Assembly (NCBI GenBank): GCA_965153355.1
Contig: OZ231126.1
Coordinates: 4,216,001-4,280,000, forward strand
Source of the DNA: Flaccisagitta enflata
Lineage: Eukaryota
Length of the DNA: 64,000 nucleotides
Direction: 5' to 3'
Part shown: positions 9,814-50,323 of the stretch, one piece after another
Layout: the number at the start of each line of letters is the position of its first letter
Position numbering within the stretch: position 1 is the stretch's first letter
Made by a program: the position numbers and the translations under genes
Notes under the pieces: model-generated
Told to the model about the DNA's origin: nothing
Databases searched by the model: none
The model's input: the letters and a program-made list of their open reading frames with translations, nothing else

Positions 9814-9817
9814 TTTT

Positions 9818-9897
<80 letters not shown>

Positions 9898-9906
9898 AAT
9901 TTTTTT

Positions 9907-9970
<64 letters not shown>

Positions 9971-10108: not shown

Positions 10109-10224
<116 letters not shown>

Positions 10225-10515: not shown

Positions 10516-10767
10516 GGGCGTGTTTCTAGTGAGCGCCAAAAACGCGTTTGTTCCCATGAAACGCGATAACAGTGTGAACACATACCCAAGAATTTCAACC
10601 GTCCAACGAGGGAGTGAGCAAAGTGAGTGAGCGAGCCCGTGAACGGAGCGTAGCAAAGCGGAGCGCTGCGGAGCGAGTGAGCGGAGTGAGCGGTGCGAGC
10701 GAACGAACGTAGCGAGCGACCGAGTGGCCCTTTCAAAACGCGATCCTCTTAGACTAGAAACGCCCCC
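10516..10767. mobile_element. PIF/Harbinger-type MITE
   Basis: TIR GGGCGTGTTTCTAGT...ACTAGAAACGCCCCC, TTA TSD (10513-15, 10768-70). Confidence 0.85.
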
Positions 10768-12856: not shown

Positions 12857-13055
<199 letters not shown>

Positions 13056-13691: not shown

Positions 13692-14960
<1,269 letters not shown>

Positions 14961-15678
14961 ATCAACATCTCCATTCCTGTGACTAGTCTTTTTGATCCTT
15001 TCAGAGGCTCTTACCAGTAAGACATTTCACCATCATCGTCGTCGTCGTCTTCGTCGTCGTCGTTGTCGTCATCGTCGTCGTCGTCGTCGTCATCGTCATC
15101 ATCGTCATCATCTTTCCAGTAAGACCTTTCACCTGTGCTCCAGACAAAAAGGATTCGTGATATACAAATAAGTTTGATGATGATTTTATGTTCTCAACCA
15201 TTCTGTCTCCCTCAACAGATCTTTTGATCATCTTTTTTATCAATTTTTTTTCTTTTTTCTTTTTTTTCGTTCCTTCTTTATCTTTAGTCGCGTGTACGCG
15301 AATCTGCACCCCGCTTTGTCGATCGGTCGGTCGGTCGGTCGGTCGGTCGGTCGGTCGGTCGGTCGGTCGGTCGGTCGGTCGGTCGGTCGGTCGGTCTGTT
15401 CACCACACTTTTACTTTTTTCATCAATTTTATTTCTTTAAAGAGTGTGCTAAGTCATTCTAAGTCATTCCAAGTCAATCTGTAAGTCTCGTTGGTTGACC
15501 TTGTTTTTCCATACTCTCTTCTTTCTTTTTTTTTTCATTCGCTCTGTCCTTTATTTGTCTCTTTTTTTCCCTTTTTGCTGATTGTTCTTCACCTTGAGAG
15601 TATCTTTTGTCTAAGACGTTTCGTCTGAAACGCATCTTATTTAGGAGGTGGCATGTTTTGTAAGCAAAGTAATACATA

Positions 15679-17852: not shown

Positions 17853-17946
<94 letters not shown>

Positions 17947-18503
17947 GGACAAACAGCGAAAGTAAAAAAGTAAAAAAGAAATAGATGAAACAAAAGATGA
18001 AGACGTAAAGAAAAGAAAATAGTAAAACCGACAGAAAGACAAAAAGACTGATATATGGACTCATAAAACCTATGAGAGATTAGAAATTGAAAGTGACAGG
18101 TTATGAAATATTGCTCTCTTCGTCTTGAATTCCTGATCACCTTCTCTCATCCACCTTCAAAACGCACAAGCTGTGGCTGAGAAAGAAAATAACTATTTTC
18201 TCATATACTAGGCATGATTAGGCCCCATCCCACTTAACTAAAATCTCAAAGAAAACAAGAGTATGGTAGGCATTACAATTTTTCAAAATTTTCAAGCAAA
18301 AACTACATATTATTGTCTGTTGGGACACCAGATTTGTCGGACACAAGTTTGGTGGCTGAAGTCCCAAGAAATCCAGCTCCCCTACGCCGCTGATTCTAAG
18401 GATAGCTGTGAGGGGTCTGGATGAAACACCAATTAGAGCTCCCAAGGCTCTTGTCCTTATTCTAGATTTTTGGTTATAAAGTAATGTTGTCCAACTCCAT
18501 ATA
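15679..18503. repeat. 552-bp tandem array, ~3.8 near-identical copies, last copy split by a hAT element
   Basis: Unit starts at 15679, 16231, 16783, 17335; the same 73-aa ORF recurs every 552 bp. Confidence 0.95.
17666..18392. mobile_element. Non-autonomous hAT-type element
   Basis: Perfect 12-bp TIR CAGCGGCGTAGG/CCTACGCCGCTG, 8-bp TSD ATTCTAAG (17658-65, 18393-400); the empty site is seen in the other array units. Confidence 0.9.
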
Positions 18504-18609
18504 TGTATTTTATTGAAAGGAGGGCGAAAAAAAAGAAAATACTCGAAAACTGATAAGCCACATCTATTAAAAATGATCAACGATGATGTTTGCTATGCTT
18601 TCATCAGCC

Positions 18610-18707
<98 letters not shown>

Positions 18708-19195
18708 TCTTTAATCTGTCGACTTATGCTCACCAATACGCCTCACATCCTCCCAGGCCTGTATATAACTGATTAGTAAAACACAATTTACCACTATTTC
18801 AACCTTTACTACAGTCTTCGCTGTTTTTTTGCCTTATAGAGAAGAAAACCATAGATTTTAAAACGCAATGCAACGCATCGCGAGGAAGAAAATCAAAGGC
18901 AGGAGAGGGGGGGCTTAATAACATACACCCCTGCATCTTTTGTGTGTGCGTGTATCTTTTTTTCTGTCCATTTGTCTTTCTTTCAGTTTTTCTTGTACAG
19001 TGCTTCTCTCTTTGCCCTCCCTTGGGGGGACTTAATAACATACACCCCTGCATCTTTTGTGTGTGCGTGTATCTTTTTTTCTGTCCATTTGTCTTTCTTT
19101 CAGTTTTTCTTGTACAGTGCTTCTCTCTTTGCCCTCCCTTGTCTCTCTTTCTCTCTTTCTCTTTCTCTCTCTTTTTTTCTTTCTTTCTTTTTCTC

Positions 19196-19271
<76 letters not shown>

Positions 19272-19419
19272 TCGCTCTTATTTTCTTTCTCTCTCTCTTT
19301 CTTCTTCTCATTGTATCATACTCTTTTCTGTCTACTTTACTATCTATCACTGCTTCTCTGTTTGTCTGTCTGTCTGAAAGTCTTCTGGTGTTTCTCTTTG
19401 TTTCTCTGTCTGTCTGTTA

Positions 19420-19488
<69 letters not shown>

Positions 19489-19909
19489 TCTCATTCCATC
19501 AGACTGGAAAGAGGGCGACGAGGCTCACATCAACTTGAAACACCTTTTTTGAGCTTCGCAGGTGAATTGACTTTGCCTCAGCTTCTTTTTGTCTCTCTCT
19601 TTATCTCTTTTCCTATTATTTCCTTTGTCTCTCTCTTTGTCTCTTTTCCTTTTATTTTCTTTGTCTCTCTCTTTGTCTCATTTCCCTTTATTTTCTTTGT
19701 CTCTCTCTTTGCCTTATCTCCTTTTATTTCTTTTGTCTCTCTCTGTGCCTCTGCGTTATTCTCTCAAAAGGGCTCAGACTTAGGATGAGAAGAACAAATA
19801 AGAACCAAATAGCTGAGTTTGGCATTCCATCCAGTACTCAGGGAGTGTTTCTTTTATTGACAACAATCACGTCTATTCCCAGTAATCGCATTTTCAGCGT
19901 GAACACATA

Positions 19910-20076
19910 CAGTTGAGCCCCGCTCTAACAGATTTCAAGGGACCAATAAATTCTATTTGTTTTAGGCAGAATTCTGTTAATAACAACATAAAAAAAAAAT
20001 TGAACGGACTATGAGTTCGCGTCAGTTTCACATGGAATTCCATTGCTGGCGGGTCCGTTAGAGCAGGGTTCAACTG
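19910..20076. mobile_element. Small Tc1/mariner (pogo-like) MITE
   Basis: TA|CAGTTGA.CCC...GGGTTCAACTG|TA; counterpart at ~51363-51532. Confidence 0.75.
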
Positions 20077-20236
20077 TATCTACTTGTTTCAACCTACTAA
20101 CTTTGGAGTAGGCAAACCAGCAAAGCAAAGAGCTACGTAGTGAGTGAATGGAATGAGCAGTGTGAGCGAACGAACTCAGCGAGCGATTAATCAAGTGACC
20201 CGTTTCAAAAATGCAATTGTACGGTGTATAAATAAG

Positions 20237-20338
20237 CAGCCCTGAACTTAGTGATTTTTTTGAGCGGGCCAGTCGGGCACGCTCCCATCAAATTTAGCGG
20301 GCCCGACTAAAAAACAGCGGGCCCGACAAAATTACTGT

Positions 20339-20430
<92 letters not shown>

Positions 20431-20474
20431 GGTAAAACAGAAGGGAAGATGAAGTATTGAAAAGAGAGAAAAAA

Positions 20475-20547
<73 letters not shown>

Positions 20548-21086
20548 AAACAAAGACAAAAAGACAGAAAGAAAGAAAGAAAGAAAGAAAAAAGAAAGAC
20601 ACAAAGACACAAAGAAAGGAAAAAACAGAAAGGAAAGGAAAGGAAGTAAGAAAAGAAAGACAGAAAGTAAGAAAAATAAAATAAAACAGAAAGGAAGGCA
20701 GAAGGAAAGAAAGAAAGGAAAAGGAAAGAAAGAAGGAAAGAAAGAAGGAAAGAAAGAAGGAATGAAAAAAAAACCAGTTGGTCAAAGTTTAAATGTATTC
20801 TGTGAAACGCTACCTGAGGGGCCTGATTTGAAGCCCAAGAGGTCTGATAGGGGGGGGGATAAACAAACAAACTGAGTGACAAATAAGTATGGAAATCCTC
20901 CTGTGTTCAACAGGAGTCCGTCCCTGGGTTGCTGACAAAAAAATTGATGTTTCTAGTAAAGAAAGAAAGAAAAAAAGAAAAGAGAAAAAGGAGGAAAGAA
21001 TGAGAGAAACAAACAAATAAAGAAAGAAAAAAAAAGGATAGAAGAGAAAAGGAAAAGAAAGAGAGAAAGAAAGAAAGTAAGAAAGA

Positions 21087-21136
<50 letters not shown>

Positions 21137-21162
21137 TCAAGCAAGCAAGCAAGCAAGCAAGC

Positions 21163-21210
<48 letters not shown>

Positions 21211-21389
21211 AAAAAAAAGAGAAAGAAATACAAACGATACAAAAAAATCAATGTACCACTTCAGCATTAATGAAAAAATGACAAGCCAAATATGAGCGGG
21301 CCCGTCGGGCCCGCATATAGAAAAACTTGCGGGCCCGACAGCAAAGATGCGGGCCTCGGGCCCGCGGGCCCGCTCTGAAATCAGGACTG
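20237..21389. mobile_element. Non-autonomous hAT-type element with GCGGGCCC subterminal repeats
   Basis: Termini CAGCCCTGA...TCAGGACTG, 8-bp TSD TAAATAAG (20229-36, 21390-97); empty site in the right arm at ~51205. Confidence 0.9.
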
Positions 21390-23817
21390 TAAATAAGCCC
21401 CTTGAGATTTAGAGTTGGGATGAGAAGAATAAATAAGAACCGAGTTTGACATTCCATCCAGTACTCAATCATGGCAAGTTTCTACTCAATGAAATTCTTT
21501 TCATCACGAGGTTAAGTCGCTTGCTGAGTGACTGTATTAGCGGATGTGTTATTATATATCTATCTTGCCTGGATGAAAATGCATTGATCTGAAACTGATC
21601 TCTCTTCCCAACTCTCATACATAAACCCGCTATAACGAATCCAAAAGTAACTAAAGTCATCCCATAACAAATCTTGGTCCCTTCATGATAATTTTTTTCT
21701 GGCAATAGCGGAAATCCACCTATAACTAAAAAGATTTGTGAGACCGTTGACATCCGTTATTGCGGGGTTCAACTGTACATACAATGCTAAAGGGTGTCGT
21801 AATTCATGTGCATGTTTTATCGCTGCGTGGCCGGCCTCACTCACGTAGCATATTGAGCAGGATGTATCTCATCTACAAGAATTCATGAACATTCTGATAA
21901 AGTGCCGAAATCTTAAATAAAACAAACCTGCACTAAATGATACTGGCTTACTCGGTTGAATTAGAGAAATCGCTTAATCGGGAAAAAAGTCGAAGTCAGT
22001 CTTCGACTTTTTGACATATTTGAGAGAAACAGGGTTTTCATTTTCTTATTAAGAAGTTGAGGGTCTCAATCGACCAATTGCACCCTTGGACGAAATTGAT
22101 AGGGTAAGTAAATTTGATAATTCTCTTTCATTTGGCACCAAGCAAAAGTCTCTGGGACCAATATTCTTTTTGTTATGAATTTTGAAAGATTTATTGACGA
22201 AAAATTTAAATTGAATTTTTTTTTTATTTTTCATGATTTCATGTAGGATCAATAAAGGAGTGTGTCTAAGTTTGATTGAGCATGTAAATACAAGAAAACA
22301 TGCTCATGAGTTATGAGCATAGCTGCTCATGTGTGAGGGTGATTTTGAGCATTTTAGCTCATTTAGCTCATTTAGCTCAGTTATTTTTCTGATTCCAAAT
22401 ACGATAAATGGGCAAATATATTGATGGATGTTTAAGCAAGCAAATACAAGGAAGCATGTCAGTGAGCAGAGCTGCTCATCTGTGAGGGAGTTTTTAAGTA
22501 TTCTAGCTCATTTACCTCATTTAGCTTGCTCTTTTTTCAATTTCAAAACAGATAAATAAATGTTTTGATTTAAGCATGCAAATACAAAAAAGCATGTCAG
22601 TAAGCATAGCTGGTTGTCTGGTTGAGTGATTTTGAATATATTAGCTCATCTAGCTCATTCGGCTCGGGCCTAATTTTCTCTGATTTTCAGTGCAACCAAT
22701 ACACACAATTGCTCTTAATTTGATCTAACAAATAAAAAAAATTGCAGTGACTGAAGACAAAAGCTTGGTGAAAAGTGAACAACGCTTACGACTTTTTTCC
22801 TCACGGCGACAGTCGCCATTACTGGTATTGTTTCAATAGAAATGATAAAGGCCAATTGGCACAGCTCAAAGCAAGATAACTTCAATTTTTAGTTTCTTTT
22901 ATTTTTTAATCAAAGTTATCTTTTCAGTTGAAACATTTTCATTTAGTTTAAAAGGCAGCCCCGGCAGTAATGCATAATTCAAGTCTTATGGTGAGAAATT
23001 GTTGCTGCTCAGAATGTTTAAAAATCTAGTACCCAAGTTAACAGGCCTGTATATAATTGAGGGTCTGGAGATGGGGAAGAAAATCAAAGGGGGAAAAAAG
23101 AGAAAAAAAAAAGAAATTTGGGGAAAATATTACTTTTTACAGTACCAGATGATAAAACCTAATTAGTAAATCACAATTTAACACTATTTAAATCCTAACA
23201 ACATTGTTTTGTAGCTCTATAGGAAAGAAAATCATAGATATAAAAACGCGACGCGACGCGTCGCGGGGAAGAAAATCAAAGGCAGGGATGGATGTAGGGG
23301 AGCTCTGAAGTTCGCCACGTCCACTTTGCATTTCAAGACCGAGTGAGGTTCAAGTCCGACTTATGTAAAAACTGAAAACTATAAAAAGAAATGTAATTTC
23401 CTTACTTTTGGCATCATTCTTGAATGAAAATCCTCCTTTTAAAGGCTTTTTTGTAATAATTCAAACAAACTCAGTTCAATTCTTCTCTTTTTAGGATATT
23501 TTTCTAAGAAATTTTTAATTTTTCAACCTTGAATCCCTTCTAATTCAAGACCGACTTGCTTTTCAAGCCCGACTTTTACCACGTCCATGGACGTGGTGGA
23601 CGTGGCGTCCCCTACATCCATGGGCAGGGGGGGGGGGGAAATCAAAAGCAACTCAATTTTATACACCCCTGCCCAAGTACCAAATTTTCCATGCCTCCTG
23701 AAATATTAATTACTGAGCATAACCGCCCTTTCTATTTACTGTTTGGCAATTTCAAATCTGAACAAACTAGTTTCCAATCAATTCATTGATACAAGATCTT
23801 ATTTCTAATATCGTAAT

Positions 23818-26800
23818 TCATCTACAAATTATAGCTTTTTTGACATTGCCGCAAAAACTACGAAAAGCGAATCTGAAATTGTTGGAAGCGATGAGATAAA
23901 TGCCGAGATTTATACTCGACGTCATCACACCAATCAGATAACTTCCGTAACGCCACCGCGACTGAGTCGCTTCCAAACGATCGCGACAATCCAAAGCGAA
24001 AACGAAATCTAACAAAACGATTATATGGGAACAACTAAACGCCAAAGCGACTAATGCTACCAACTTCTTAAAGTCATCTTCGGTTTTCGCTTTGGATCGA
24101 CTATTTTCGGCGTAACGCGATTTATCTTTAGATCGACTATTTTCGGCGTAACGTGAACGGAAGTGGAGTTTGATGAGTACGAAAAGGGACAATATTAACT
24201 CGATTATCATAAACGCGATCGAATTAACGATTCCAAACCAAGAAGAAACGATAAATCGGGGAAGGTCTAAAAGAGGCGGGATGAGAGAATTGACTAAAGC
24301 TAATACAAAAGTGTAGACGATTGTAATCAATGACGTGATGACGGTTAATTCTACCAAAATTCTCTTTTGAGTTTTGGTTTGACTTTCCATGGCAGAGGTG
24401 ACGTTTTTCAGGGCCCAAGCACGAACGAAGGAGATGTAGAGTATCATGGAACTATTGATTCCCTTGCAAAGAAGACAACTCCAGAACACGACTTGAAAAC
24501 CGTGGAAGCAAAATCGTTGCGCATGACTGTTGAAAAAAAAAGGGAGGGGGGGGGTGGTAGATGATGATCATTAATTGTATTAAGGATCAGGGTACTCTTG
24601 ACGTCCGCGCAAAGAAGACAACTCCAAAATACAACTTGAAAACCGTAGAAGCAAAATTGTTGCGCTTGACTATTGAGAAAAACGGGGGGTGGGGTACCCA
24701 GATGATGTTCCTTAATTTGCCCAAGGGCTACATACCCTGTATTGGCTCTCCATTCAATATTGTTTGGTTCTGAGTAGAAAAATCAGGATTGAAGGGCAGG
24801 GGCATTTTCACAGTTTTCAACGTTAGCATCACGGATGGACCAACAGACGGACGGATAGACAAAGCCTCACTTACAGACTGCAGTAGCAACTCCGCAACTT
24901 AGCCATGACAAGCAAACGTGGTACAGGGTCATCCACCTGAGTTGTCGGATTCTGTTAAGCTTTTCCTCTCTGATGCCAAGAGACATGGATTTGAAATTGA
25001 TCAAGTCTTAAAGAGTATAGATTAACATTTTTTGTATAAAAATTTCAGCCATTTCACCTTGATCTGGGGGCTGAGAAAAACCCGAGATGAATCTCAATAG
25101 TTTAAATTACATGAAAAGCATACTTCTAGCTGCCCCAGTGAGATGAAATTTTACATGAAGAAAGCTGATGGTTTTGCAGAGTTTCAGTTAAAATTTCATC
25201 TCACTGGGTTAACTAGAAGTATGCTTTTCATGTAAATTAAGCTATTCAAACATGCTAGATTCATCTCGGGTTTTTCTCAGCCCCCAGATCAAGGTGCATT
25301 TTGGTCAAGTAGTTTGTCTTTAACATGGATTTGAACATAAAGCTTTTATTTCTGGACTGAGCAGATTTTCCAGGAATTGTGCAAGTTACCAACCCAATTA
25401 GTTTTTGAATTTTTTTAGTAATCAATCCAAAACAGGCTTGAATCAGAAACGATATTAAAGTATTTCAATATATTTGTCAGTTTATCTTTCATTTGAGATT
25501 AATTTTCTCTCTATGTCAAGAATAGTAAAAAAAAATGAAAATGAATGCAAGCAGGATTCAGAATATCTGATAGACAATCTGTAAAATGGTAAAATACTTG
25601 TGTCACTTCAAACTTATGTAAAAGACAAACTACTTGACCAAAATGGCTGAAATTTTTATACAAAAAATATCAAGCTATACTCTTTAAGACATGATCAATT
25701 TCAAATCCATGTCTCTTGGCATCAGAGAGAAAAAGCTTAACAGAATCCGACAACTCAGGTGGATGACCCTGTAGATTGAAGAACTGAACAACGGACGGAC
25801 TTGCCAAAAAATGGTGGATGAAGTCGCGTACACGGGACTAATATTAGAAAATCAGGGTATCTATTAATAGGGAGTACAGTTACACCCCACTTGAACGGAC
25901 CCAAGAGTAACGGTAAGCCTGTAATAACGGATTTAGCTTATTGGTCCCTTCAAATTATCTTTTTTAACATTTCCTTTGTTAGCAAAAACAGAAATCATTT
26001 TCCAACAAACAACCATCATCTTGTATTACCACCTGGCCCGAGCGTGAAACCGGAAGTTCGTTCCGGTTGCGGAAAAAGGGCAGGGTCGCTCCAAAACGAT
26101 AATGGGCTGCTTGGCCGTGACGGTAACGGTATTCAGAAGAAGAAGAGGAAGAAGAAAAGAAAAAGAAAAGAAAAAAGAAGAAAAGAAAAAAAAAGAGAAG
26201 AAAAAAAAAAAGAAAAAAACGGCGAAAAGAAAAAAAAGAAGAAAAGAAAAAGAGAGAAAAAGAGTTGTAACCACAGATGAGTAAATACAGATACTTATGA
26301 TTATTGAAGACCTGTAATGTTGTCCTACTCATACCGTACCGTCCCCGACACGATATTTCAATAAATTGCATCGCTACGCCAGGTGGCTGAAAATGGCGGT
26401 GTTGCAACGTCCACGGAATAGAGGTTTACCGCAATGTCACGCTCGGCCCAGATTACCACCCTTACCTCGTGCAAGGCAGACACAAGTCAATGCCGTTAAA
26501 CGAATCATCTTATATTACCACCCTTACCTCGTGCAAGGCAGACACAAGTCGCAATTCCAACTGAAGACTGTGATCGTGAAAGTCCCAACATTAACGAGAA
26601 TATCCGAGAAAGCCAATGATGTTAAATGAATTATCTTGTATTACCACCCTTACCTCGTGCAAGGCAGACACAAGTCGCAATTCTAACTGAAGACTGTGAT
26701 CGTGAAAGACCCAACATTAACGAGAATATCCGAGAAAGCCAAAGCAGTTAAATGAATCTGCGCCTGAGTCCGACGTTGATTGAGTCTCATAGACTCCTTC

Positions 26801-26997
26801 ATGACGAAGATGACGAGGATGTTGCCCAAGATGCCCGTCAGCGAGATGGAGGAGCAAACCGGGTCGCCTAAGTGCCCGGCGTGAGTTTGGTCGATCTGAC
26901 AGTTTTCGTCACATGGCTGTTCCAAAGTGTCATTCAATGTGGAGGTGTTGATGTTTGAAATGTAATCGTGAAATACATTGGGAAGTGTAGTAGTCAT
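23818..26997 (-). CDS. Divergent rhodopsin-like (class A) 7TM GPCR 'GPCR1'; exons 26997-26654 and 24526-23818; in-frame TAG at 26685-26683 (possible pseudogene)
   Basis: TM1 GILGNILV, TM2 LTALAFSD, TM3 end ISFVR, TM7 SSINLGIY..SNNFR. The GT-AG phase-2 intron 26653-24527 joins in frame. The protein aligns with GPCR2. Confidence 0.8.
24924..25771. mobile_element. Tc1/mariner-type element with long (~150 bp) TIRs, in the GPCR1 intron
   Basis: TA|CAGGGTCATCCACCTGAGTTGTCGG...CCGACAACTCAGGTGGATGACCCTG|TA. Confidence 0.9.
25055..25296. mobile_element. Transib-like MITE with RSS-like termini, nested in the TIR of the previous element
   Basis: CAC...GTG termini, 5-bp TSD CATTT (25050-54, 25297-301), ~40-bp perfect TIR; the uninterrupted site is seen in the host's other TIR. 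Confidence 0.85.
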
Positions 26998-28155
26998 TTC
27001 GGATAGAAATGTACACTTTATAAGATCTAATTTGAGAAGGAATATGCTTAAATGGAGGCAATAGAATTACACAATCAGTGTAGAAATCAATAAGACAATA
27101 TCGGTGTGTCAAGCTTCTGGGAATATATTCCCTACAAATTTCATTCAGGATTTTTGGTCGAGACGAGACATGATGATAATCTCGAGTTTATATGCGGGTA
27201 GCGAAAAGATCAAAACCCTTTCAACTTCTGGAGATCAGTTCAAAAAAAAAAAAAAAAAAAGATTCGTGTCTAGTTTGATAAAAAATAAAGGAAGAGTATC
27301 TGCTTGAAAAAAAGTTGATTCTACTTGGTGTACATAACAATCATACTGGGAAATTGAGGGTTATGTCAAATGTGAGACATGCACACGAAAAAAATCGTTA
27401 ATATACAGAAATACAGGAAGAAATGCAAAAACACTGGAAAAGTGGATCTAAGAAGACAAGAAAGAGGTAGACAATGAGAAGACTATAATAACAGAGGTCA
27501 CCACTCCCTTTGAGGGCACAGCCTTGATATACCATCTTGGCCATAAATATAAGCACAGCTTTTAAGTGTCATAACTCGCTTAATTTTTAACGCACATGAT
27601 TTTTTTTTCTCAAAATTTGCATCTTCAAAAAATCTATCAAATGAGACCAAGCTGGTTCCTGTATCTTTATTCGTTAAGAAATGAGAGCCAAATGAATAAA
27701 ACATTTACTTTTTGCAAGCGTGGTTGGGCAAAACTTTCTTAGTTTATGGAGAATGGTGCACTGGCACATTGCGCCAAATATACTGTAAGATCGACGACTT
27801 AAGCTTGTCTAGCGTTATCCCACATCAATTTGCATCCAATTGAGATTAAAAACCTGCGGAAACAGGGGAAAACAACATGCAAAGCAGGGCTGAAATGAAT
27901 TGCATAAATGGTTTGAAACAACATCACTCTAGAGTACCTCCAGTCTCTCTACAAGTCAATGGCAGGCTATGGTGGATACCCAACATGATCATACTAAATA
28001 TTAGATGCAGTTTGATATCTTTGCTTCTCATCTCTAGTCAATAAATCAACTTATCCACCTATTGTGCTTATATTTATGGCCAAGATGGTAGGTGAGTAAC
28101 ATAGATTGCTACTCATGCCAATGCTTAGATGTAAGGGTCTTTTCAGTATCAACAA

Positions 28156-30115
28156 TTATTTTCTCACGGTAAAAACCTTCTTCCAATATCTGATGAGAGT
28201 GACTCTAAAATTTTTCGATGTTGCGACATAAATCAGCAAATTGACGCTGGAATTTAAAATTCCCGTAAAATAGGTCCAAAACCGGAAACAGCTTTCTGTT
28301 GCTGTCAATCGATCGTCGACAATCAACGCGTTAACGAGGTCAATCACTACAAATACGTGACTACAGCAAAACAACAAACCCACAAACGCCACCAATTTCT
28401 TGAAATCATCGTCGGTTCTTGTTCTGGAACAACGATGTTGGAGGATGAGAAGCTGACGACTGCGCAGCTTCACCAAAACAAAGATGGCCGATGCCATCAC
28501 AATCAGGATTATCAAAATGGAACTGAAGATTCCGAATCTCGCGGAAGAAGTGAACCTAGCAGAAAGGATATTAAAAGTTCATGAGGTACCAAACTTTTCA
28601 GTACATTATGTAAAGGCCCATCTGACTGAAATCTTTAGACTGGAAATATCACGAAAATTCATGATGTATTGGCATATCAAAAACCAGCCTTAGTTGAAAC
28701 ATACAGCTTTTTTTAGCCTAATCATGCTTCAGTTTTTACCCTGCTAAAATGTATCTATATAGAACATAAGATTTCAACTTATACAGACGAATTTTTATTT
28801 GAATGTTTATCGCATCTTTATCTAAGTGCAATTTACTAAAGGGGCCCATAAATCTTGACCTTAATAAGCGAGTCACTGCTAAAACAGGCTTTTATAACCA
28901 AGGGTATTTCAACACTTCCTCATACTTCAAAGTCTACACGACAATCTACTGTATATTACGCCCCTCGAAGCGCCTTCAAAGTTAACCCACAACCTCCCCC
29001 ATTTAATCAATATGGAGATTTGTTGAAAAAATTATCATCTCAAAATGGGAACCATTGTTTGGAGCTTAATTCAATTTCTGTGATGATCAATGGTAGGAAA
29101 AAATCTAAGTCAAACCTTATTTCAGAAACACACATAATCAATTAATCATTGTACTTCCAGGAGTACATTTGCATGCACCTGTGTGCCTATTTGGCGCATA
29201 ATGATAGTAAATTGGTCAAAAAATTTGTAGGTTGGGATCATAGGATAAGTGACACCCTTCCTATAACTTCCTGAAATGCTTCAAACTTTTCCTAACGAAG
29301 GCTCCCATAGCCACAACGGTCTGAAATTTTGCCTGAAACATTTTTTTTCATCAAATCTCCGCGATGGTTACATGGGTGAGGTCGTTGGTTTACTTTGGGG
29401 GCGCTTTGAGGGACGTACGTAAAATTTGTTGAACAGCGCCCGTATATTCCCCGCTGAAAGTCCTGTACCTCGGGATCTCGAACAAAAACGGAATGAGCAA
29501 GTTTGCGGCCGCCAAACCCACTCCATAGACGGTGGTCACCAACAAGGAACAAACGACGAGTTCCACGATGACTCTTTGTTGGGTCTTTTTCTGACTATCC
29601 ATGGCATTTGAAATGGTTCTGAAAGACGCCGCTCGTTCTTAGGGTGTGTTTCCAGTGAAGACCAAAAACGCGTTTGTTCCCATTGAACGTGTTTTCAGCG
29701 TGAACACATATCCAAGAAATTCAACTGTCTCAGGAGGGAGTGAGCGAAGTGAGTGAGCAAGCCCATGAATGGAGCAAGCGAGCGAAGCGAGCGTAGCAAA
29801 GTGGAGCGCTGCAAAGCGAGTGAGCGGAGGGAGCGGTGCGAGCGACCGAGTGGCCCGTTCAAAACGCGATTGCCTGTGACTAGAAACGCCACCTTAAAGA
29901 CGCCGCTCGAACGCAGGAAATGTAAACCGTGATGGAACGATTCACGCCGAGCAGGAAGAGACTCGTCCAAAAGGTCGCTTCAAATCCGAGTTGACAAATT
30001 TCGGTTTTGATTGAGGAAGATTCTCCGCAAAAGTCACAATTCCAACTGAAGATGGCGAGAGTCGTGCAGCCAACGTCGATGATCATGTCCGCGAAGGCCA
30101 ATGCGGTCAGATGGA
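28156..30115 (-). CDS. Divergent class A-like 7TM GPCR 'GPCR2', TM2-TM7; exons ~30115-29893, 29618-29469, 28555-28156; TM1 exon not found
   Basis: The spliced product QIHLTALAFADMII...ISCVRAASLR|TISNAMDSQKK...EIPR|FTSSARFG...NSSVNLLIYVATSKNFR aligns to GPCR1 without gaps across both junctions. The upstream exon boundary is approximate. Confidence 0.8.
29642..29893. mobile_element. PIF/Harbinger-type MITE forming most of a GPCR2 intron
   Basis: GGGTGTGTTTCCAGTG...CTAGAAACGCCACC with TTA TSD (29639-41, 29894-96). Confidence 0.85.
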
Positions 30116-30462
30116 TCTGAGCGCGAGGGCACGGTTGGAAGGAGGTATGGATGGACCATGGGTAGATTGTGCCATGGATGTAGGAAGAGATGGATACATG
30201 GAGCATGGGTAGTTTGGGTATGTGTGGAAGGAGGGATGGAGGGGGGCGTGGGTAGATTTTACCATGGGTGGGTGGAGGGATGGATGGAGTATGGGTAGAT
30301 TGTGCCATAGGTGAAAGGAGAAATGATCGGATTGAGCATGGGAAGATCAGACACAGTTAAATTGGCATAGGATGGGTGAGCATTGAAGATTGGGTAAGAA
30401 TGGAAAGAGGCATGAGTTGATATAGTTTGGATGAATTGACAGTGTATGTGGCGAATAAGGCC

Positions 30463-31004
30463 TTTTTGGGCAGCGGCCCAAAGGGCCGATGTCCTGTAGA
30501 ACACGGGGGAATTTCGGGACGTGCGTCCGTCCATCCGTCCATCCGTCCATCCGTCCATCCTTCCGTCCCTCCTTCTGTCCCCCCCCTGTTGACCCTCAAG
30601 GCCTCAAATTAGCCCTCCCAGGACTCAATTTAGCCCTCCAGGCCTAAAATCAGCCCTCTTGGCTCAAATCAGCCCCCCTCCCATGCTTTAAATCTGCCTC
30701 CCAGACCTCAAATCTGCCCTCCAGACCTTCAATCAGCCCTCCAAGCTTAAAGCCAGCCCGCCAAACCTCAAATCTGCTCTCCAAGCCTTAATTATGCCCT
30801 CCAACCCTCAGATATGCCTTCAGTGGCATAAATCAGCCATCTAGAGCCCCCTCAGGACGGACGGACGTCTCGAAATTCCCCCCTGTGTTTAACAGGACAT
30901 CGGCTCTACGGGGCCGCTGCCCTGCTCTCACTCCACTTCTTCACTGGATCACTCAGCAGGGCATCGGGTACCGCTGACCATGTGCAATCCTTGGATGACT
31001 AGTT
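30463..31004 (-). mobile_element. HINE/DINE-1-like element (family of 4495-5025)
   Basis: Same subterminal inverted repeats and central tandem repeats, in reverse orientation. Confidence 0.7.
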
Positions 31005-31340
31005 AAAAGTATTTGTGGGTAAGGTATAGATGCATTGGCCAGAGAAGGACAGGCTATGGAGCTCACCGGAACACCTTATCTATAAATGAAACTGACTGTA
31101 AAGTGATCCTTTAAATGAGTTATACCTACCAGTAAAGGTGACTCTCGCCGACCAGAAAAAATCGTAAGATAGTCATGTTTTTTCAGTTCCTTCTCTCTCC
31201 TCGTTATATTCACGCGCCTGTGTGTGTGTGTGTATGTGTGTTTGTGTGTTTGTGTTCGTGTGTGTGTGCGTGTGTGTGTGCGTGTGTGTGTGTGTGTGTG
31301 AGTCTGTCTGTCTGTATGTCTGGCTGTCTGTCTGTCTTTC

Positions 31341-31388
<48 letters not shown>

Positions 31389-31390: not shown

Positions 31391-33376
31391 GCAATGAAAA
31401 TGTGGGAGATCAAGCTGGTATTGAATCACGACAACGGCTCACTTGAGGTCCCAAACATAAGAATTAAACGTGGTATCTTCCAAGGTGATACTTTATCCCC
31501 CCTCCTCTTTATACTTGCTCTAAACCCTCTCAGCTTCCTGTTAAATGAAGGTGGGTGTGGATACAAGATAGACGGAATATGTTTTAACCACGTTTTATAC
31601 ATGGATGATATCAAGACGTTTTCCAGCAATACCAAGGACGGAGTTAAACTGATCAAAATAATGTTTGACTTCTCTAAAGATATTGGCATGTCGTTTGGAA
31701 TCGAAAAATGCAAAGTCCTTAACGTGGTAAGAGGGAAATATGCAAAGCTAGGAGGTGTACAGCTCCCAAACGGGGATTTTATTGAAGAAATGGACGAGGG
31801 GGATGTATACAAATACCTTGGGGTTGTTGAATCGACAATGATCAAGCATGCAGAAATGAAACAGAAAATCCTTACAACATTCAAAAAGCGAGTAAAAAGT
31901 ATTCTCAAATCAGAACTAAACTCTAGAAATATTATGATAGCTATCGGGGAGTATGCTGTACCGGTTATGTCGTACACATATGGAATAATTAACTGGACGG
32001 AGGAAGAAATAAAGAATGCAGACCTACTAGTAAGAAAAAACTTAAATATGTATAAAATGTTTGAGCTTAAAAGCGACATAGACCGACTATACATCCCTCG
32101 ATCGATGGGCGGAAGAGGTTTACAATCAATATGGGATGGCTTCAAATGTGCCAATGTCAGAATAGCACACTACATGACTGGAAGTGTTGACCATCACATG
32201 AAGGTATGTGCCAATTTTGACAGGCAGTGCCTTTTCTCTATCATAAAACGTGCTGAAAAATTCTCCACCTTACACAATCCACCCACTCCCGAAAACATTG
32301 AGAGTAGACCATTGCTCAGACAGGCCAAGATTGTAGCACAGAGGTTGCGAGAAACAATCTACAAAGACAGATATGAACTGTTCCTTGCAAAACCCCAGCA
32401 TGGTGCCCTTATGCGAATAATGAAAGAAAACGACACTGATATAAAAACAAGTTGCTCATGGATGGACAAATGTCACCTCTCGCCCCAATCTGAAGCATAT
32501 ATATGTGGCATGCAGGAAATGGCCATTTTTACCAGATGGCATGAACACCATATCATTAGAAATAGAGACTCCGACTTATGTAGAATATGCAAAAAAGAAC
32601 CCGAAACAACCTTCCACATACTTTCCGGCTGTGATGTTCTAGCAAAAAAAGAATACTTTGATAGACACAATAGTGTTGCTAAATACATTCACTACCAAAT
32701 ATGTAAAAGATATGGAATCCAAACTGAGCCAAAATGGCACTTACACAGACCAGCAGAGGTGTACATAGATGGGAAAGTTGAACTCCTGTGGGACATCCCC
32801 ATCACCACTGCAAGGATGATTGGTGCAAATAGGCCAGATATTGTCGTAAGAGACAAAAGTAACAAGGTAACATACATAATCGATATCAGCTGCCCCTGTG
32901 ACACAAATGTACATAGCAAGGAGGTGGAAAAAATCTCCAAATATTGTAGTCTGCGAGTCGAACTAGCGAAGATGTGGAATACTGAATGTGTTGTTATACC
33001 TGTAATTGTGGGTGGATGCGGTACTGTTTCAAAAGAATTTACAAATTACCTTGGGATGATCCCGGCTGAATTGCAACCTGAAATGTGCCTGAAGATTGCC
33101 TTACTAGGGAGCGAAAAAACCATGCGCTCTTCTTTATCGAGAAAATGATAGCAATCTCCCTGTATGGACTGGTGTTGCCATTACGGCCCAATTCGTTTGT
33201 TCAAAGTTGGCCTTTGTTGGATTACATATGTAGTGGACTACTTGAATCAAAACCTCATCATCAACCAAAACAAAACAAACGAAGAAATTCTGAATTGCCT
33301 TTAGGATTAGGTCAGTCCTCGGCTATCAGTCTTATGTTTCCAAGACAGTTCGATCTTATGCAAGTACATGTATAAA
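31389..33376 (+). mobile_element. 5'-truncated RLE-type non-LTR retrotransposon (R4/Dong-like) in a (TC)n tract
   Basis: (TC)n on both flanks; open RT-RLE ORF followed by ~230 bp of 3' UTR ending TATAAA. Confidence 0.9.
31394..33148 (+). CDS. Partial retrotransposon ORF: RT, CCHC zinc knuckle, restriction-like endonuclease
   Basis: GIFQGDTLSP, LYMDD, YKYLG, YIPRSMGGRGL, CRIC..ETTFHILSGC, RHN, RPDIV..IDISCP..EK..KY; no internal stops. N-terminal RT domains are missing. Confidence 0.92.
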   Translation: MKMWEIKLVLNHDNGSLEVPNIRIKRGIFQGDTLSPLLFILALNPLSFLLNEGGCGYKIDGICFNHVLYMDDIKTFSSNTKDGVKLIKIMFDFSKDIGMSFGIEKCKVLNVVRGKYAKLGGVQLPNGDFIEEMDEGDVYKYLGVVESTMIKHAEMKQKILTTFKKRVKSILKSELNSRNIMIAIGEYAVPVMSYTYGIINWTEEEIKNADLLVRKNLNMYKMFELKSDIDRLYIPRSMGGRGLQSIWDGFKCANVRIAHYMTGSVDHHMKVCANFDRQCLFSIIKRAEKFSTLHNPPTPENIESRPLLRQAKIVAQRLRETIYKDRYELFLAKPQHGALMRIMKENDTDIKTSCSWMDKCHLSPQSEAYICGMQEMAIFTRWHEHHIIRNRDSDLCRICKKEPETTFHILSGCDVLAKKEYFDRHNSVAKYIHYQICKRYGIQTEPKWHLHRPAEVYIDGKVELLWDIPITTARMIGANRPDIVVRDKSNKVTYIIDISCPCDTNVHSKEVEKISKYCSLRVELAKMWNTECVVIPVIVGGCGTVSKEFTNYLGMIPAELQPEMCLKIALLGSEKTMRSSLSRK

Positions 33377-33556: not shown

Positions 33557-35203
33557 GACCCTCCCCGCGAAACCGCGATTGAAGATACTTCGGCGACTCG
33601 GGCTTTGATCCTTTTGGGTATTTTGCTGCCTTCCAACGCCGAATTGGCCGAAACCGTCGCCGACGATCATTTCCTTTCGGCGCTTCTCGATTACCTTAGA
33701 TACGGTCCACCCAATCAGGTGCGTTGAGCGATGATTTTGATTTTATTTATGTGTACGTGTTTTCGTTGCGGACGGGTGGGTAGGGGCGTCCAACCTCCAT
33801 CCACACCTCTATCCCCACACTCCCACTTACAAACATACACAACAAGTCATCCAAGGATTGCACATGGTCAAGGATCGCACATGGTCAGCGGTACTCGATG
33901 CCCTGTTTGGAGTGATCAGCTGAAGAAGTGGAATGAGAGCAGGGCAGCGGCCCCAAAGGGCCGATGTCCTGGACACAGGGGTGAATTTCCTTACGCCCTG
34001 AGAAAGCATACTTCAGGCCTTTGGAGCATTTTTCCATGATATTCAATCAGAGTTATATAATTTTTACAATTTCTTGTTAATTTTCCATATTATTCCATGA
34101 GAATTTCAGTTTTTTGTCCATTTTCCATGTAATCCAATTGCAATTTTGCAATTTTTTCATTTTTTGTTAATTTTCCATGTTATTGGATGGGATATATGCA
34201 TTTCTCTACTTTTTGTAATCTTTCCATGTTATTCAATGGGAAGTTTGTATTTTGTCATTTACCCATGTTATTCAATGGGAATTTTTCATTTTGTTCTTAG
34301 TTTTCATCATTATTCAATGGGAAGTTTGGCATTTTGTCATTTTCCATGTTATTCAATTTGAGAATTTGAGAATCGAGCCTGGGGATGTAATGGCCAGACG
34401 GATTGACGACGACGGACGGACGTAAGGTAATTCACCCTCAAATTTACAGGACATTTGGCCTGGGGCCGCTGCCCAAATAGTATCCAAAACGCTTGTTCAT
34501 TACCATTGAACCAATGGACCGACGGACCAATGGACCGACGGACGGACGGACAAAGCCTCTTATAGAGTTGCGTGTCCGCAACTAAAAATAATGGCACTCC
34601 TCAGGTCAAGTCCGGTTCGAAAGTGGTTGCTGCGGTATTGAAGCAGTCTTCGCGCTCGAGGACGGCGTTGGTCGACAGCAAGAAAGGACTGTCAACGTTA
34701 GTTTTGCTGCTTAAAGACGCCGACGAGATGATCGTCGGAAACGCCGCTTTAGGGCTCAGCCTTTGCTCTGAGGTAAACGACGACATCATCTTGTGTGGGC
34801 CAAAACGAGAGATATAGGCTTTTAGCAAACATATCTGATGAGGAACTTTTTAAGAATGACTACTGTACTTCAGGCATGTTTACCAAATCGGCCAAGTCAA
34901 AGATATGATATTATTTGTTATTCAATGAATAAAAACAAATCATGATTATTCAAAACTTATTTTCTCTCGTTTACCTCATTTCCTCGATCCAAGGTTCCCA
35001 AAGTCGTCGAGAAGTTAACAAAGACGCAGATCATCAAACATCTGCTGACGTTGGCGCGCGACGCCAACAAACCGGAAGTGAGAGAGAACTGCGCCATTCT
35101 TCTGGCGAAATTGGCGCAAAAAGACTCGAGACATTTGGAAAGACTCAGAGAATTACATGGAATCGAAATTTTACATTCTTGCATGAAGTTTATCAAACAT
35201 TGA
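33557..35203 (+). CDS. TTC12: TTC12-like protein, C-terminal ARM region; exons 33557-33718, 34605-34772, 34994-35203; upstream exons not found
   Basis: DEMIVGNAALGLSLCSE|VPKVVEKLTKT..LLTLA..NCAILLAKL..RLRELHGIEILHSCMKFI* matches the TTC12 C-terminus as I recall it; phase-0 GT-AG joins. Confidence 0.8.
33841..34476 (+). mobile_element. HINE/DINE-1-like element in a TTC12 intron
   Basis: Same 5' motif CATGGTCAGCGGTAC and subterminal inverted repeats; internal TTTTCCATGTTATTC repeats. Confidence 0.65.
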
Positions 35204-35633: not shown

Positions 35634-41326
<5,693 letters not shown>

Positions 41327-49810: not shown

Positions 49811-50323
49811 CAAACCAAAACTCAAAAGAGGATTTTGGTAGAATTAACCGTCATCACGTCATTGATTACAATCGTCTACACTTTTGTATTAGCTTTAGTC
49901 AATTCTCTCATCCCGCCTCTTTTAGACCTTCCTCGTTTTATCGTTTCTTCTTGGTTTGGAATCGTCAATTCAATCGCGTTTATGATAATCGAGCTGATAT
50001 TGTCTCTGTTCGTACTCATCAAACTCCACTTCCGTTCGCGTTACGCCGAAAATAGTCGATCTAAAGATAAATCGCGTTACGCCGAAAGTAATCGATCTAA
50101 AGCGAAAACTGAAGATGATTTTAAGAAGTTGGTGGCTTTAGTTGCTTTGGCGTTTAGTTGTTCCCATATAATCGTTTTATTAGATTTCATTTTCGCTTTG
50201 GATTGTCGCGATCGTCTGGAAGCGACTCAGTCGCGATGGCGTTACGGAAGTTATCTGATTGGCGTGATTACGTCGAGTGTCAATCTCGGCATTTATCTCA
50301 TCGCTTCCAACAATTTCAGATAG
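49811..50323 (+). pseudogene. Truncated copy of GPCR1 (TM4-TM7 only, C-tail lost)
   Basis: Near-identical protein to the 23818-24381 segment; lacks the 5' half and stops at NNFR*. Confidence 0.75.

Follow-up and report, generated by a model that had tools for sequence, protein, structure and literature searches.

Why two adjacent, related receptor genes should be interrupted at entirely different places is the question raised by GPCR1 and GPCR2 of Flaccisagitta enflata, which lie on the minus strand where a sequence-only reading had placed them, within a window of 64,000 nt (the whole stretch of DNA analysed here). Both are orphan rhodopsin-type GPCR genes, with 46% protein identity and no interruption position in common; in family-profile coordinates, GPCR1 is interrupted at 93.5 and GPCR2 at 132 and 179, and excising the segments yields an ungapped alignment of the paralogues at all three sites. 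The sequence-only reading explained this by independent, recent, transposon-associated intron gains in an ancestrally intron-poor family, an interpretation that is partly supported. The lack of a common position stands, and with it the independence of the introns, since the positions differ between the genes, and transposon-like DNA is present in all three delimited introns. That content is not above expectation for the window, where MITEs, microsatellites, and tandem repeats are dense throughout. Among the features that had escaped the sequence-only reading are an in-frame TAG in GPCR1, the absence of a TM1 exon for GPCR2, the repeat-family membership of the 274-nt GPCR2 interruption, and a third GPCR fragment. 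Three different kinds of interruption are present, only one of which is itself a small transposon, and we give a probability of about one half to an explanation in which three unrelated histories are superimposed, with the pair reflecting mostly ordinary gene-family decay and turnover.

The features of GPCR1 are as follows, with a slash marking each splice junction.

26654..26997, minus strand: exon 1 (N-terminus, TM1, and TM2), ATG at 26997, ending ACGAG/GTAAGG
24527..26653, minus strand: intron, 2,127 nt, phase 2, donor GAG/GTAAGG, acceptor tttttttttcaacag/T
23818..24526, minus strand: exon 2 (TM3-TM7), starting caacag/T, stop at 23820-23818
26452..26758, minus strand: 126-nt unit repeated in tandem (final 89 nt of exon 1 with the initial 37 nt of the intron)
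24440..24694, minus strand: tandem duplication of the acceptor junction (intron end and exon 2 start), 143-nt spacing
26033..26451, unstranded: hAT-like non-autonomous element nested in the intron
24924..25771, unstranded: Tc1/mariner-like MITE in the intron, TA duplications at 24922-24923 and 25772-25773

The single intron read after TM2 (CT/SH) was recovered, with the codon after ...PCT split (CT/S/HAQ) in phase 2, and it carries strong GTAAG and poly-Y/CAG signals. Exon 1 gives a weak Pfam 7tm_1 match (E 0.0063) and contains an in-frame TAG at 26685-26683 (codon 105), a codon that reads TGG in the second copy of the 126-nt array, and exon 2, which is under purifying selection, carries a 36-nt tandem duplication, in frame, within the third intracellular loop (~24095-24166). 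The array comprises two full copies and one internally deleted copy, with a 37-nt core across the donor identical in all three, and the acceptor-junction copies (24440-24551 and 24583-24694, with a second protein-search match at 24671-24582) are 79-81% identical. The hAT-like element has 15-nt terminal inverted repeats (14/15 matching), an 8-bp target duplication, ATTACCAC, at 26025-26032 and 26452-26459, and an internal purine microsatellite (26135-26263), and the Tc1/mariner-like MITE has 133-nt arms that are 96% complementary, with a hairpin MITE nested within it at 25055-25296. Both elements are secondary arrivals, since they lie inside the intron with target duplications of their own, and the intron itself predates the acceptor-junction duplication, the copies of which are now 19-21% diverged.

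The position of this intron recurs in the wider family, with 8 of 100 distant family proteins breaking within 5 profile positions of 93.5, in the same loop, through breaks (P0078, P0040, P0035, P0079, P0036, P0087) or in-frame insertions (P0005, P0053), where profile coordinates are uncertain by several residues. Breaks, which were scored as a loss of homology with a non-homologous extension, come from uncurated open reading frames and could be frameshifts, contig ends, or insertions instead of introns; in the wider bracket of profile positions 77-106 they occur in 17 of the 100 proteins. These same-loop breaks point to a position that is old and shared, not private. Together with the nested elements and the diverged junction duplicates, they contradict a recent transposon-made gain of the GPCR1 intron, which we infer to be old. 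At the two GPCR2 positions (132 and 179), none of the 100 proteins examined shows a break with a non-homologous extension, the nearest family breaks lying ~6-11 profile positions from 132 and ~12-14 residues upstream of 179. Further breaks occur at profile positions 138-143 (P0057, P0027, and P0032) and ~165-170 (P0078, P0079, and P0084). Certain other members are broken at more than one place. An ancestrally intron-poor family is plausible, with 32 of the 99 representatives listed (query counted) matching end to end in one stretch, although these may be transcripts.

A third copy bears on how long the intron-bearing gene was maintained.

49811..50320, plus strand: GPCR3, a partial copy of GPCR1 (codon ~164 onward), 94.9% nucleotide identity to 24381-23871

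In an inverted segmental duplication of roughly 17 kb, the arms of which differ by 4-18%, GPCR3 closes the right arm on its inner side, and this inner end cuts into a coding exon. The 3' half of GPCR1 and GPCR3 differ by 21 synonymous and 5 non-synonymous changes (pN/pS 0.07), indicating that the intron-bearing gene was long under selection.

GPCR2 is organised differently.

29893..30116, minus strand: exon A (TM2-TM3, ending ...SLR), with cgcgctcag directly before it
29619..29892, minus strand: 274-nt interruption, a Tourist-like MITE followed by GAA and a 17-nt exon-end copy finishing in CAG
29619..29637, minus strand: downstream side of the MITE, where a second TAA and GAA complete the first 19-nt unit and the second unit follows
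29469..29618, minus strand: exon B (second intracellular loop and TM4, ending ...IPR)
28556..29468, minus strand: 913-nt intron, phase 2, donor GAG/GTACAG, acceptor cctttctgctag/G
28957..29417, unstranded: inverted pair of foldback or MITE-like type within the 913-nt intron
28156..28555, minus strand: exon C (TM5-TM7 and stop; coding 28555-28159, stop 28158-28156), Pfam 7tm_1 match, E 0.00095

The introns predicted at SLR/ and IPR/F were found at 29892-29619 (274 nt) and 29468-28556 (913 nt), the latter with exactly the length and the AG/GT at both ends that had been proposed. A further intron had been thought probable before TM2; it could not be delimited, with tblastn, profile searches, and a motif scan finding no TM1 or N-terminal exon for GPCR2 in the window, including the 34 kb upstream. 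The sequence directly upstream of GPCR2 holds a foldback transposon, microsatellites, and a LINE truncated at its 5' end. The inverted pair proposed for the 913-nt intron was confirmed, with 75-nt arms (28957-29031 and 29343-29417) that are 80% complementary around a 311-nt loop, and distances of 51 nt and 401 nt separate it from the splice sites. The suggestion that the initial GTACAGG combines a TA with a mariner end is unsupported, there being no matching inverted end at the 3' side of the intron, and apart from its own inverted pair no stretch of the intron recurs in the window. Here a transposon is nested, and the intron ends are not transposon termini.

The 274-nt interruption, by comparison, is a derived transposon insertion. 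It consists of one Tourist-like MITE from end to end, with inverted ends and TAA on both sides, flanked by a 17-nt direct repeat, and its removal gives an ungapped alignment with GPCR1, P0002, and P0003. The MITE sits in the TAA of a 19-nt tandem duplication of the GPCR2 exon, so that the order is the first unit with the MITE in its TAA, the second unit, and then CCATT; in the second unit the TAA is changed to TCA, and this unit supplies the putative tctttcag acceptor, its last two bases lying in exon B. The donor GT owes its T to a private G-to-T substitution in the third base of the MITE terminal repeat (AAG/GT), one of 11 private substitutions in 150 comparable columns, and the T is absent from the 5' ends of the other four MITE copies. 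With 29639-29896 as query, blastn recovered three full-length copies and one partial copy elsewhere in the window, whereas seven nhmmer hits over the window reduce to five independent insertions after merging of arm duplicates. Alignment places inverted ends and TAA on both sides of the 60381/10511 copy also, and a clean TAA duplication is seen in only two of four independent full-length insertions. Transposon-associated gain, as originally proposed, thus holds for this interruption, with its complete Tourist-like MITE and TAA duplication, and not for the other two delimited introns, and "recent" holds in a relative sense only, the MITE copy having 7.3% private substitutions and 85% identity to its nearest relatives.

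These observations are consistent with the following course of events. The intron in extracellular loop 1 of GPCR1 would be a conventional, old spliceosomal intron of the GPCR family, which probably received the hAT-like MITE and the Tc1/mariner-like MITE with its nested hairpin element later, with both splice junctions also becoming tandemly duplicated. GPCR2 would be without the GPCR1-type intron and would have two lineage-specific interruptions instead. In the first, a Tourist-like (PIF/Harbinger-type) MITE may have inserted at the TAA of the 19-nt exon duplication to give the 274-nt interruption, with the private G-to-T providing an AAG/GT donor and the second 19-nt unit a tctttCAG/ acceptor, creating an introner-like, transposon-made intron. 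Splicing from the MITE-end GT to the second-unit CAG would remove the element and one unit, restoring the frame exactly, and we infer that the 274-nt piece was spliced while GPCR2 was active. The second would be a canonical GT-AG intron at an AG/GT site, into which the foldback probably inserted later. The most economical order places the frameshifting 19-nt duplication before the MITE, so that GPCR2 would already have been broken at the time of insertion.

That order is also the starting point of the strongest competing explanation, which we consider possible if rather doubtful, namely that GPCR2 is a dead gene: the 19-nt duplication shifted its frame, the MITE and the 913-nt segment then landed in a pseudogene, the 5' end was lost to transposons, and the GT...AG borders of the 274-nt segment are coincidental, with nothing spliced. 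Only with the MITE taken out is the duplication unit continuous, so that it most simply predates the insertion, and the missing TM1 exon, with the LINE and foldback directly upstream, fits such decay, as does damage to the neighbours (the TAG in GPCR1 and the truncated GPCR3). Both GPCR2 donors, GTGGCG and GTACAG, appear weak by eye, neither having a +5 G, and the database search found no longer protein containing exon C, the sole match being P0047, an almost identical open reading frame from a different source that begins with the first Met of exon C, as expected of genomic sequence read without splicing. The 257 codons of GPCR2 that are open, with no stop or frameshift, are a weak sign of function, since at low divergence such a frame is not improbable: in a substitution-only simulation, 771 nt remained stop-free with a probability of 0.16 at 7.3% divergence and 0.46 at 3%. 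Against a dead gene, the MITE copy has two indels relative to its relatives where these 257 codons show no stop or frameshift, and the four residues of 113 at which P0047 differs from exon C all lie in the third intracellular loop or C-terminal tail, with none in TM5-7 (helices placed by the present authors). Furthermore, two separate interruptions have GT and AG exactly at the points that restore frame and alignment, a pyrimidine run precedes the AG in both, the donor GT needs one specific private substitution, and the location of the MITE inside the 19-nt unit suggests linked rather than random events.

An artefact of assembly or sequencing, in which the TAG, junction duplications, missing exons, and inverted "duplication" would be mis-joins or haplotype mixing, is improbable. 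In its favour, tandem and inverted repeats crowd the region, the inverted duplication has its inner end within a coding exon, and each of three neighbouring copies has a different single defect despite strong purifying selection on GPCR1 and GPCR3; the locus today is decaying or imperfectly assembled, with a TAG in GPCR1, no first exon in GPCR2, and a truncated GPCR3. However, the 4-18% arm difference is too high for ordinary haplotypes, the MITE forms with its target duplication and the 19-nt unit a coherent structure that mis-assembly would not create, and P0001, which is 99% identical to GPCR1 exon 2 and comes from another source, likewise begins at a Met inside that exon, consistent with the same interrupted structure. 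Reciprocal loss, by which all intron positions would be ancestral and transposons merely colonised existing introns, the 274-nt one included, is very unlikely: the GPCR1 position is common to many distant members, so GPCR2 may have lost an intron there, and the breaks at 138-143 and ~165-170 show that the family is not uniformly intronless, but the 274-nt segment is no relic of such loss, consisting of a whole Tourist-like MITE, its TAA target-site duplication, and an exon copy, without residual older intron sequence, the MITE is 85% identical to relatives when the paralogues are 46% identical in protein, and neither GPCR2 position recurs among the 100 proteins examined.

The preferred reading, of three superimposed histories, has counterparts in several known systems. 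Introners are described as MITE-like DNA transposons that become introns on insertion in Micromonas, dinoflagellates, tunicates, and others (PMC11282704, PMC9860276, PMC12130899), the element contributing one splice site and the target region the other (PMC11282704), and in just two animal groups among the genomes surveyed (PMC9860276). Like these, the element in GPCR2 is short and non-autonomous, has inverted ends and a 3-nt target duplication, and accounts for a whole exon interruption, with one predicted splice site in the element end, the other in duplicated target-side sequence, and a frame that removal restores. In contrast to introners, just one of the five independent MITE insertions in the window interrupts a coding exon that was recognised as such, the donor stems from a private substitution and not from the family consensus, and the acceptor comes from the 19-nt exon duplication rather than the 3-nt duplication. 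The 3-bp duplication, usually TAA, is the signature of PIF/Harbinger and Tourist elements, and the GPCR2 element resembles Tourist MITEs such as mPing in its ~260-nt length, lack of an ORF, terminal inverted repeats, TAA duplication, presence in several copies, and location within or close to genes (PMC2836001, PMC2213677). It differs in that no autonomous partner (transposase and ORF1) is seen in the window and duplications are unclear in two of the four independent full-length copies. The terminal motif presumably resembles plant PIF ends.

Intron insertions in normally intronless GPCR genes are reported for the melanocortin receptors of ray-finned fishes (PMC3151243). The present genes are likewise rhodopsin-class, with many uninterrupted members and lineage-specific interruptions at unshared positions; the fish cases reportedly rest on phylogeny across annotated genomes, in contrast to the single window considered here, and one intron in GPCR2 has a directly identifiable transposon source. 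Introns can also reportedly be created when an exon segment containing AGGT is duplicated in tandem in the genome (PMC3265369, PMC4974935). As in that model, an exon duplicate supplies a putative GPCR2 splice site, and the two intron borders, 5' and 3', occupy corresponding places in the two units, although the GPCR2 unit of only 19 nt could not alone form an intron and the transposon provides the body. The tandem-duplication model is reportedly due originally to Rogers.

Ordinary introns serve as neutral landing pads for transposons. The elements in the GPCR1 intron and the 913-nt GPCR2 intron behave accordingly, being nested, with their own duplications, or away from the splice sites, and a landing pad is the ordinary reading for these two of the three introns.

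The window is eukaryotic in character, with a G+C content of ~40% and an abundance of microsatellites, MITEs (short non-autonomous transposons with inverted ends), and tandem repeats, and its minus strand carries two paralogous seven-helix receptor genes, GPCR1 and GPCR2, between 23818 and 30116.

GPCR1, minus strand: ATG at 26997; exon 1 to 26654; exon 2 from 24526; stop 23820-23818; 350 codons.
GPCR2, minus strand: exon A 30116-29893; exon B 29618-29469; exon C 28555-28159; stop 28158-28156; 257 codons.

The sequence-only reading of this pair drew three introns, none of them at a shared position, and proposed independent, recent, transposon-associated gains. The junctions stand as drawn (GPCR1, 26653-24527, 2,127 nt; GPCR2, 29892-29619, 274 nt, and 29468-28556, 913 nt), with all three introns in phase 2 and their removal giving an ungapped alignment between the paralogues and with the related database proteins P0002 (a full-length paralogue) and P0003. 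The positions are indeed unshared, lying at family-profile coordinates 93.5 in GPCR1, and 132 and 179 in GPCR2. Should the 274-nt segment prove unspliced, the pair would teach that neither transposons inside introns nor unshared positions between old paralogues, taken alone, indicate transposon-driven intron gain. The observation is partly confirmed and its interpretation partly supported: a transposon origin holds for the 274-nt segment, a demonstrable insertion, fails for the GPCR1 intron, which belongs to an old family position, and is not established for the 913-nt intron.

GPCR1 and GPCR2 share 46% identity over 191 columns, with pairwise identities of 38–46% among GPCR1, GPCR2, P0002, and P0003 being star-like and yielding no usable tree. 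The gathering score of Pfam PF00001 (7tm_1; 30.5 bits) is reached neither by the exon pieces (16.4 and 19.2 bits) nor by P0002 (27.9 bits over profile positions 2-260), and the family is therefore divergent. An atlas search with P0002, in place of the window proteins, gave 0.97 for its first hit by features; family or clan was 7tm_1 for each of the ten best named hits, and in structure the TM-scores against 7tm_1 clusters ran from 0.68 to 0.74. This language-model and structure look-up places the family among rhodopsin-type receptors. The family is moderate-sized and orphan, with an exhaustive search from P0002 retrieving 99 representative proteins at E<=0.001 and 61 at E<=1e-10. Database matches to the two genes are confined to ORFs beginning inside their last exons, and a search with GPCR1 exon 1 at near lengths gave no match.

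The 274-nt interruption of GPCR2 is demonstrably an insertion of a Tourist-like MITE of the PIF/Harbinger superfamily. Within the window, blastn relates 29639-29896 to 60382-60642 (81%), 10513-10770 (76%), and 4171-4392 (75%), with a further partial relative at 19834-19909, and a profile built from four copies gives seven nhmmer hits in the 64-kb window, representing five independent insertions since two pairs of hits are each a single insertion copied by a segmental duplication. One same-family copy present in both duplication arms (51199-51327 and 51532-51604; 20112-20217 and 19838-19910) is split by ~200 nt unmatched to the family profile. The copies have inverted ends of ~15 nt, are 225–297 nt long, and lack coding capacity. 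Two of the four independent full-length insertions, the GPCR2 copy and the one at 60381/10511, have TAA at either side; the flanks of the copies at 4168 and 827 are ambiguous. PIF/Harbinger elements and Tourist-like MITEs are described as marked by a 3-bp duplication, mostly TAA (PMC2836001; PMC2213677), and the segment combines this TAA/TTA-type duplication with inverted repeats, small size, absence of coding sequence, and multiple copies. No autonomous partner, comprising a DDE transposase and a second ORF, was noticed among window ORFs of at least 130 aa. Of 150 comparable columns, 11 (7.3%) hold substitutions private to the GPCR2 copy, which shares 85% identity with three of its relatives and 68% with the fourth and, judged on sequence divergence, is far younger than the split between the receptor paralogues. 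It is the only one of the five independent copies to lie in a recognised coding exon.

The flanks of the GPCR2 copy run in the order 13-nt exon piece, TAA, MITE, TAA, GAA, the same 13-nt piece, TCA, GAA, and remaining exon; this is a 19-nt tandem exon duplication whose first unit took up the MITE at its TAA. The interval 29892-29619 is made up of the MITE followed by TAA, GAA, and, last, a 17-nt copy of the sequence that ends the exon. As in introners, where the element makes up the whole intron, the GT lies in the terminal repeat and the CAG at the end of the 17-nt copy. The donor AAG/GT is built on MITE bases 2 and 3, with its T private to this copy (G or C in the other four), and the acceptor tctttCAG closes the second 19-nt unit, in which TAA became TCA. 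Intron gain by tandem exon duplication itself does not describe this structure, the duplicated unit being 19 nt and the intron body being the MITE. That the MITE sits within the 19-nt unit, in a window holding five insertions, suggests that insertion and duplication are linked events. Such a link could be mechanistic, by our inference through repair or template switching at an inverted-repeat element, or could instead reflect an extended target preference of the element, as raised in PMC2836001.

Whether this segment was spliced as an intron stands, on the sequence features available, at roughly even odds. Splicing from AAG/GT to tctttCAG would delete the MITE and one 19-nt unit, with the predicted product ...ASLR-TISN... 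collinear with ...ALKNVTS... of GPCR1. The fuller reading, to which we assign a probability of about one in four, is that of a newborn intron: a Tourist-like MITE would have entered a coding exon, a point change in its terminal inverted repeat would have created the GT, and the 19-nt duplicate would have supplied a pyrimidine-rich CAG. On this reading MITE and flank duplication would owe their co-occurrence either to a single linked repair event at the inverted-repeat element or to selection favouring splicing, and the abundant family, at seven hits per 64 kb, could serve as an introner family elsewhere in the genome. 

If the segment is not spliced, the receptor cluster would simply be decaying routinely under its load of transposons and duplications. 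Only when the MITE is taken out does the 19-nt unit become contiguous, such that the simplest order of events is a frameshifting duplication followed by the MITE, and also against splicing stand the missing first exon of GPCR2, its weak donors (GTGGCG and GTACAG), and the failure of a database search with exon C to find any longer protein containing it. In favour of splicing, both GPCR2 interruptions present a GT and a pyrimidine-preceded AG exactly at the points that restore the frame, and the 274-nt donor hinges on one specific private change. Furthermore, P0047, a 113-residue ORF from another source, equals exon C from its first Met apart from four residues, which, as we placed the helices, fall in the third intracellular loop and the tail and leave TM5-7 unchanged. 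The 257 open codons of GPCR2 also speak for splicing, but constitute weak evidence (in a substitution-only simulation, a probability of 0.16 when divergence is 7.3% and of 0.46 when it is 3%), and the open frame was dropped as proof of constraint. Were the segment spliced, it would preserve a stepwise record of an insertion becoming an intron, from target TAA through mutated terminal repeat to duplicated flank, and the MITE family would merit a genome-wide survey.

An exon encoding the N-terminus and TM1 of GPCR2 was found in the window neither by tblastn with GPCR1, nor with a TM1-TM2 profile, a four-sequence family profile, or a scan for motifs and hydrophobicity, an absence that the sequence-only reading overlooked. 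Nucleotide alignment upstream of the exon A acceptor runs into a low-complexity 43-nt repeat, and the sequence directly upstream of GPCR2 comprises this 43-nt minisatellite, a foldback repeat (inverted arms at 30468-30532 and 30855-30922, with 20-nt tandem repeats in its interior), microsatellites, and a LINE whose reverse-transcriptase match spans only positions 112-203 of the 205 in the RVT_1 profile.

30461-31004, 4495-5027, and 33869-33989: foldback-type repeat family, copies 76–86% identical.
31219-31388: (GA)n and (CA)n microsatellites preceding the LINE.
31391-33145, plus strand: 5'-truncated non-LTR retrotransposon (LINE), 585-codon open frame, Pfam RVT_1 E 3.7e-12.

Beyond these, an exon-like open frame at 37606-37860 (plus strand) with a P-loop GTPase motif (Pfam Roc, E 1.6e-05, 25.6 bits, just below the cut-off) probably belongs to an unrelated neighbouring gene. 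Local tandem duplication is frequent throughout the receptor region, and downstream of GPCR1 a 138-nt tandem repeat occupies 22314-22659 (2.4 copies, 76% matches).

The receptor locus shows decay or assembly trouble. An inverted segmental duplication, with a left arm at ~7342-24381 and a right arm at ~63934-49811, comprises 17 collinear blocks totalling 11.5 kb at 82–96% identity, and its inner end lies inside a GPCR1 coding exon at 24381 (~codon 164). The end of the right arm is therefore a third receptor sequence, GPCR3, overlooked in the sequence-only reading.

GPCR3, plus strand: 49811-50320, receptor fragment matching 24381-23871 (minus strand), without TM1-TM3.

Over 511 nt, GPCR1 and GPCR3 differ by 21 synonymous and 5 non-synonymous changes (pS 0.177, pN 0.013), the ratio of 0.07 indicating strong purifying selection on both for the greater part of the period after duplication. 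Such selection would not be seen had the fragment arrived dead, and is unexpected for a copy lacking TM1-TM3; the possible accounts are a recent truncation of GPCR3, an assembly error at this place, or upstream exons that have gone unrecognised. The GPCR3 frame continues five codons beyond the homology boundary to ttgttag at ~49796, a possible candidate acceptor, and the database relatives P0057, P0027, and P0032 break at profile positions 138-143, compared with 141 for the GPCR3 boundary. The third intracellular loop of GPCR1 contains a 36-nt tandem duplication that keeps the frame (~24095-24166; 12 residues, SRYAENSRSK-type) and is found in GPCR3 and in the family protein P0001 too.

The intron of GPCR1 has strong signals, with the donor GAG/GTAAGG and a long T-run before CAG, and holds several transposon-like elements.

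26033-26451: hAT-like element, with the 8-bp duplication ATTACCAC at 26025-26032 and 26452-26459 and 15-nt ends matching at 14/15.
24924-25771: Tc1/mariner-like MITE, flanked by TA duplications, with arms of 133 nt that are 96% complementary.
25055-25296: hairpin MITE, nested in the Tc1/mariner-like MITE.

The 8-bp duplication and short inverted repeats of the first are those of non-autonomous hAT-type elements, and the TA duplication and inverted repeats of the second are those of Tc1/mariner (Stowaway-like) elements. Both splice junctions of GPCR1 are also tandemly duplicated, a feature missing from the sequence-only reading. The donor side carries 2.2 copies of a 126-nt unit and a third copy with a deletion, 91–94% identical, with a 37-nt core spanning the donor identical in all three and the hAT-like element interrupting the third; on the acceptor side the spacing is 143 nt and the identity 79–81%. 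The acceptor duplicate retains the pyrimidine run, AG, and exon-like frame, and the intron is thus older than that duplication. Likewise missed was an in-frame TAG: where exon 1 ends in triplicate, the first copy has this stop at 26685-26683 and the second reads TGG (26559-26557). A nonsense mutation of recent date, a polymorphism, or an error in sequencing could each account for it.

Breaks in homology were scored across 100 family proteins, with at least nine non-homologous residues required beyond each break; these are uncurated ORFs, and break positions are good to a few residues only. The start points of ORFs were dropped as evidence of introns, since all listed fragments begin with M and their starts follow Met positions. 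Breaks at profile positions 77-106 occur in 17/100 proteins, eight of them within five positions of 93.5.

Breaks at profile positions 77-106 among family proteins
Starts: P0066, P0078, P0040, P0035, P0079, P0084, P0063, P0077.
Ends: P0100, P0099, P0083, P0081, P0036, P0087, P0092.
In-frame insertions: P0005 (26 residues), P0053 (50 residues).

In P0040, P0078, and P0079 the residues before the break resemble a translated pyrimidine tract ending in Q, as in the GPCR1 frame, while GPCR2, P0002, P0027, P0029, P0030, P0032, and P0033 show no break in loop 1. Because the breaks recur in a library built so that no two of its proteins exceed 50% identity, the loop-1 intron is widespread and old, and the GPCR1 intron is, as far as ORF breaks can indicate, an old family intron.

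The 913-nt intron of GPCR2 holds the inverted pair previously described (28957-29031 / 29343-29417, 75 nt, 80% complementary), with 51 nt separating this foldback from the 5' site and 401 nt lying between it and the 3' site. The suggested mariner-like end does not survive, with the 3' end of the intron lacking an inverted partner. A 22-nt, 73% inverted match near the intron ends was also considered as transposon termini and judged to be chance: it has no target duplication, would leave a non-coding remainder, and contains the self-complementary GGTACC. Relaxed blastn found no other copy of the intron in the window, returning only its own inverted pair. The borders, GAG/GTACAG ... cctttctgctag/G, place AGGT at both ends and fit insertion at, or evolution of, a proto-splice site. 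None of the 100 family proteins breaks at this position, and within the reach of these proteins the intron appears to be confined to the GPCR2 lineage. Breaks 12–14 residues upstream occur in P0078, P0079, and P0084, which resemble an internal exon with non-homologous flanks, starting in loop 1 and ending in mid-TM4; this suggests that some family members may have at least two introns, the second in TM4.

In animals, few recently made spliceosomal introns can be traced to a source. Introners are described as MITE-like elements that generate a 3-nt duplication and carry one splice site of their own, the other coming from the duplicated target (PMC11282704), and are reported from 5.2% of the genomes surveyed, animals being represented by two groups only (PMC9860276), with many transposon superfamilies having given rise to them (PMC12130899). 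Single transposon-derived introns are reported from many eukaryotes (PMC11282704), introns inserted into otherwise intronless receptor genes are known from fish melanocortin receptors (PMC3151243), and introns made by duplication are on record (PMC3265369, PMC4974935). The 274-nt case is at most a single further instance of transposon-made introns, an established class, with a twist of its own in that its donor comes from a mutated terminal repeat and its acceptor from a 19-nt flank duplicate.
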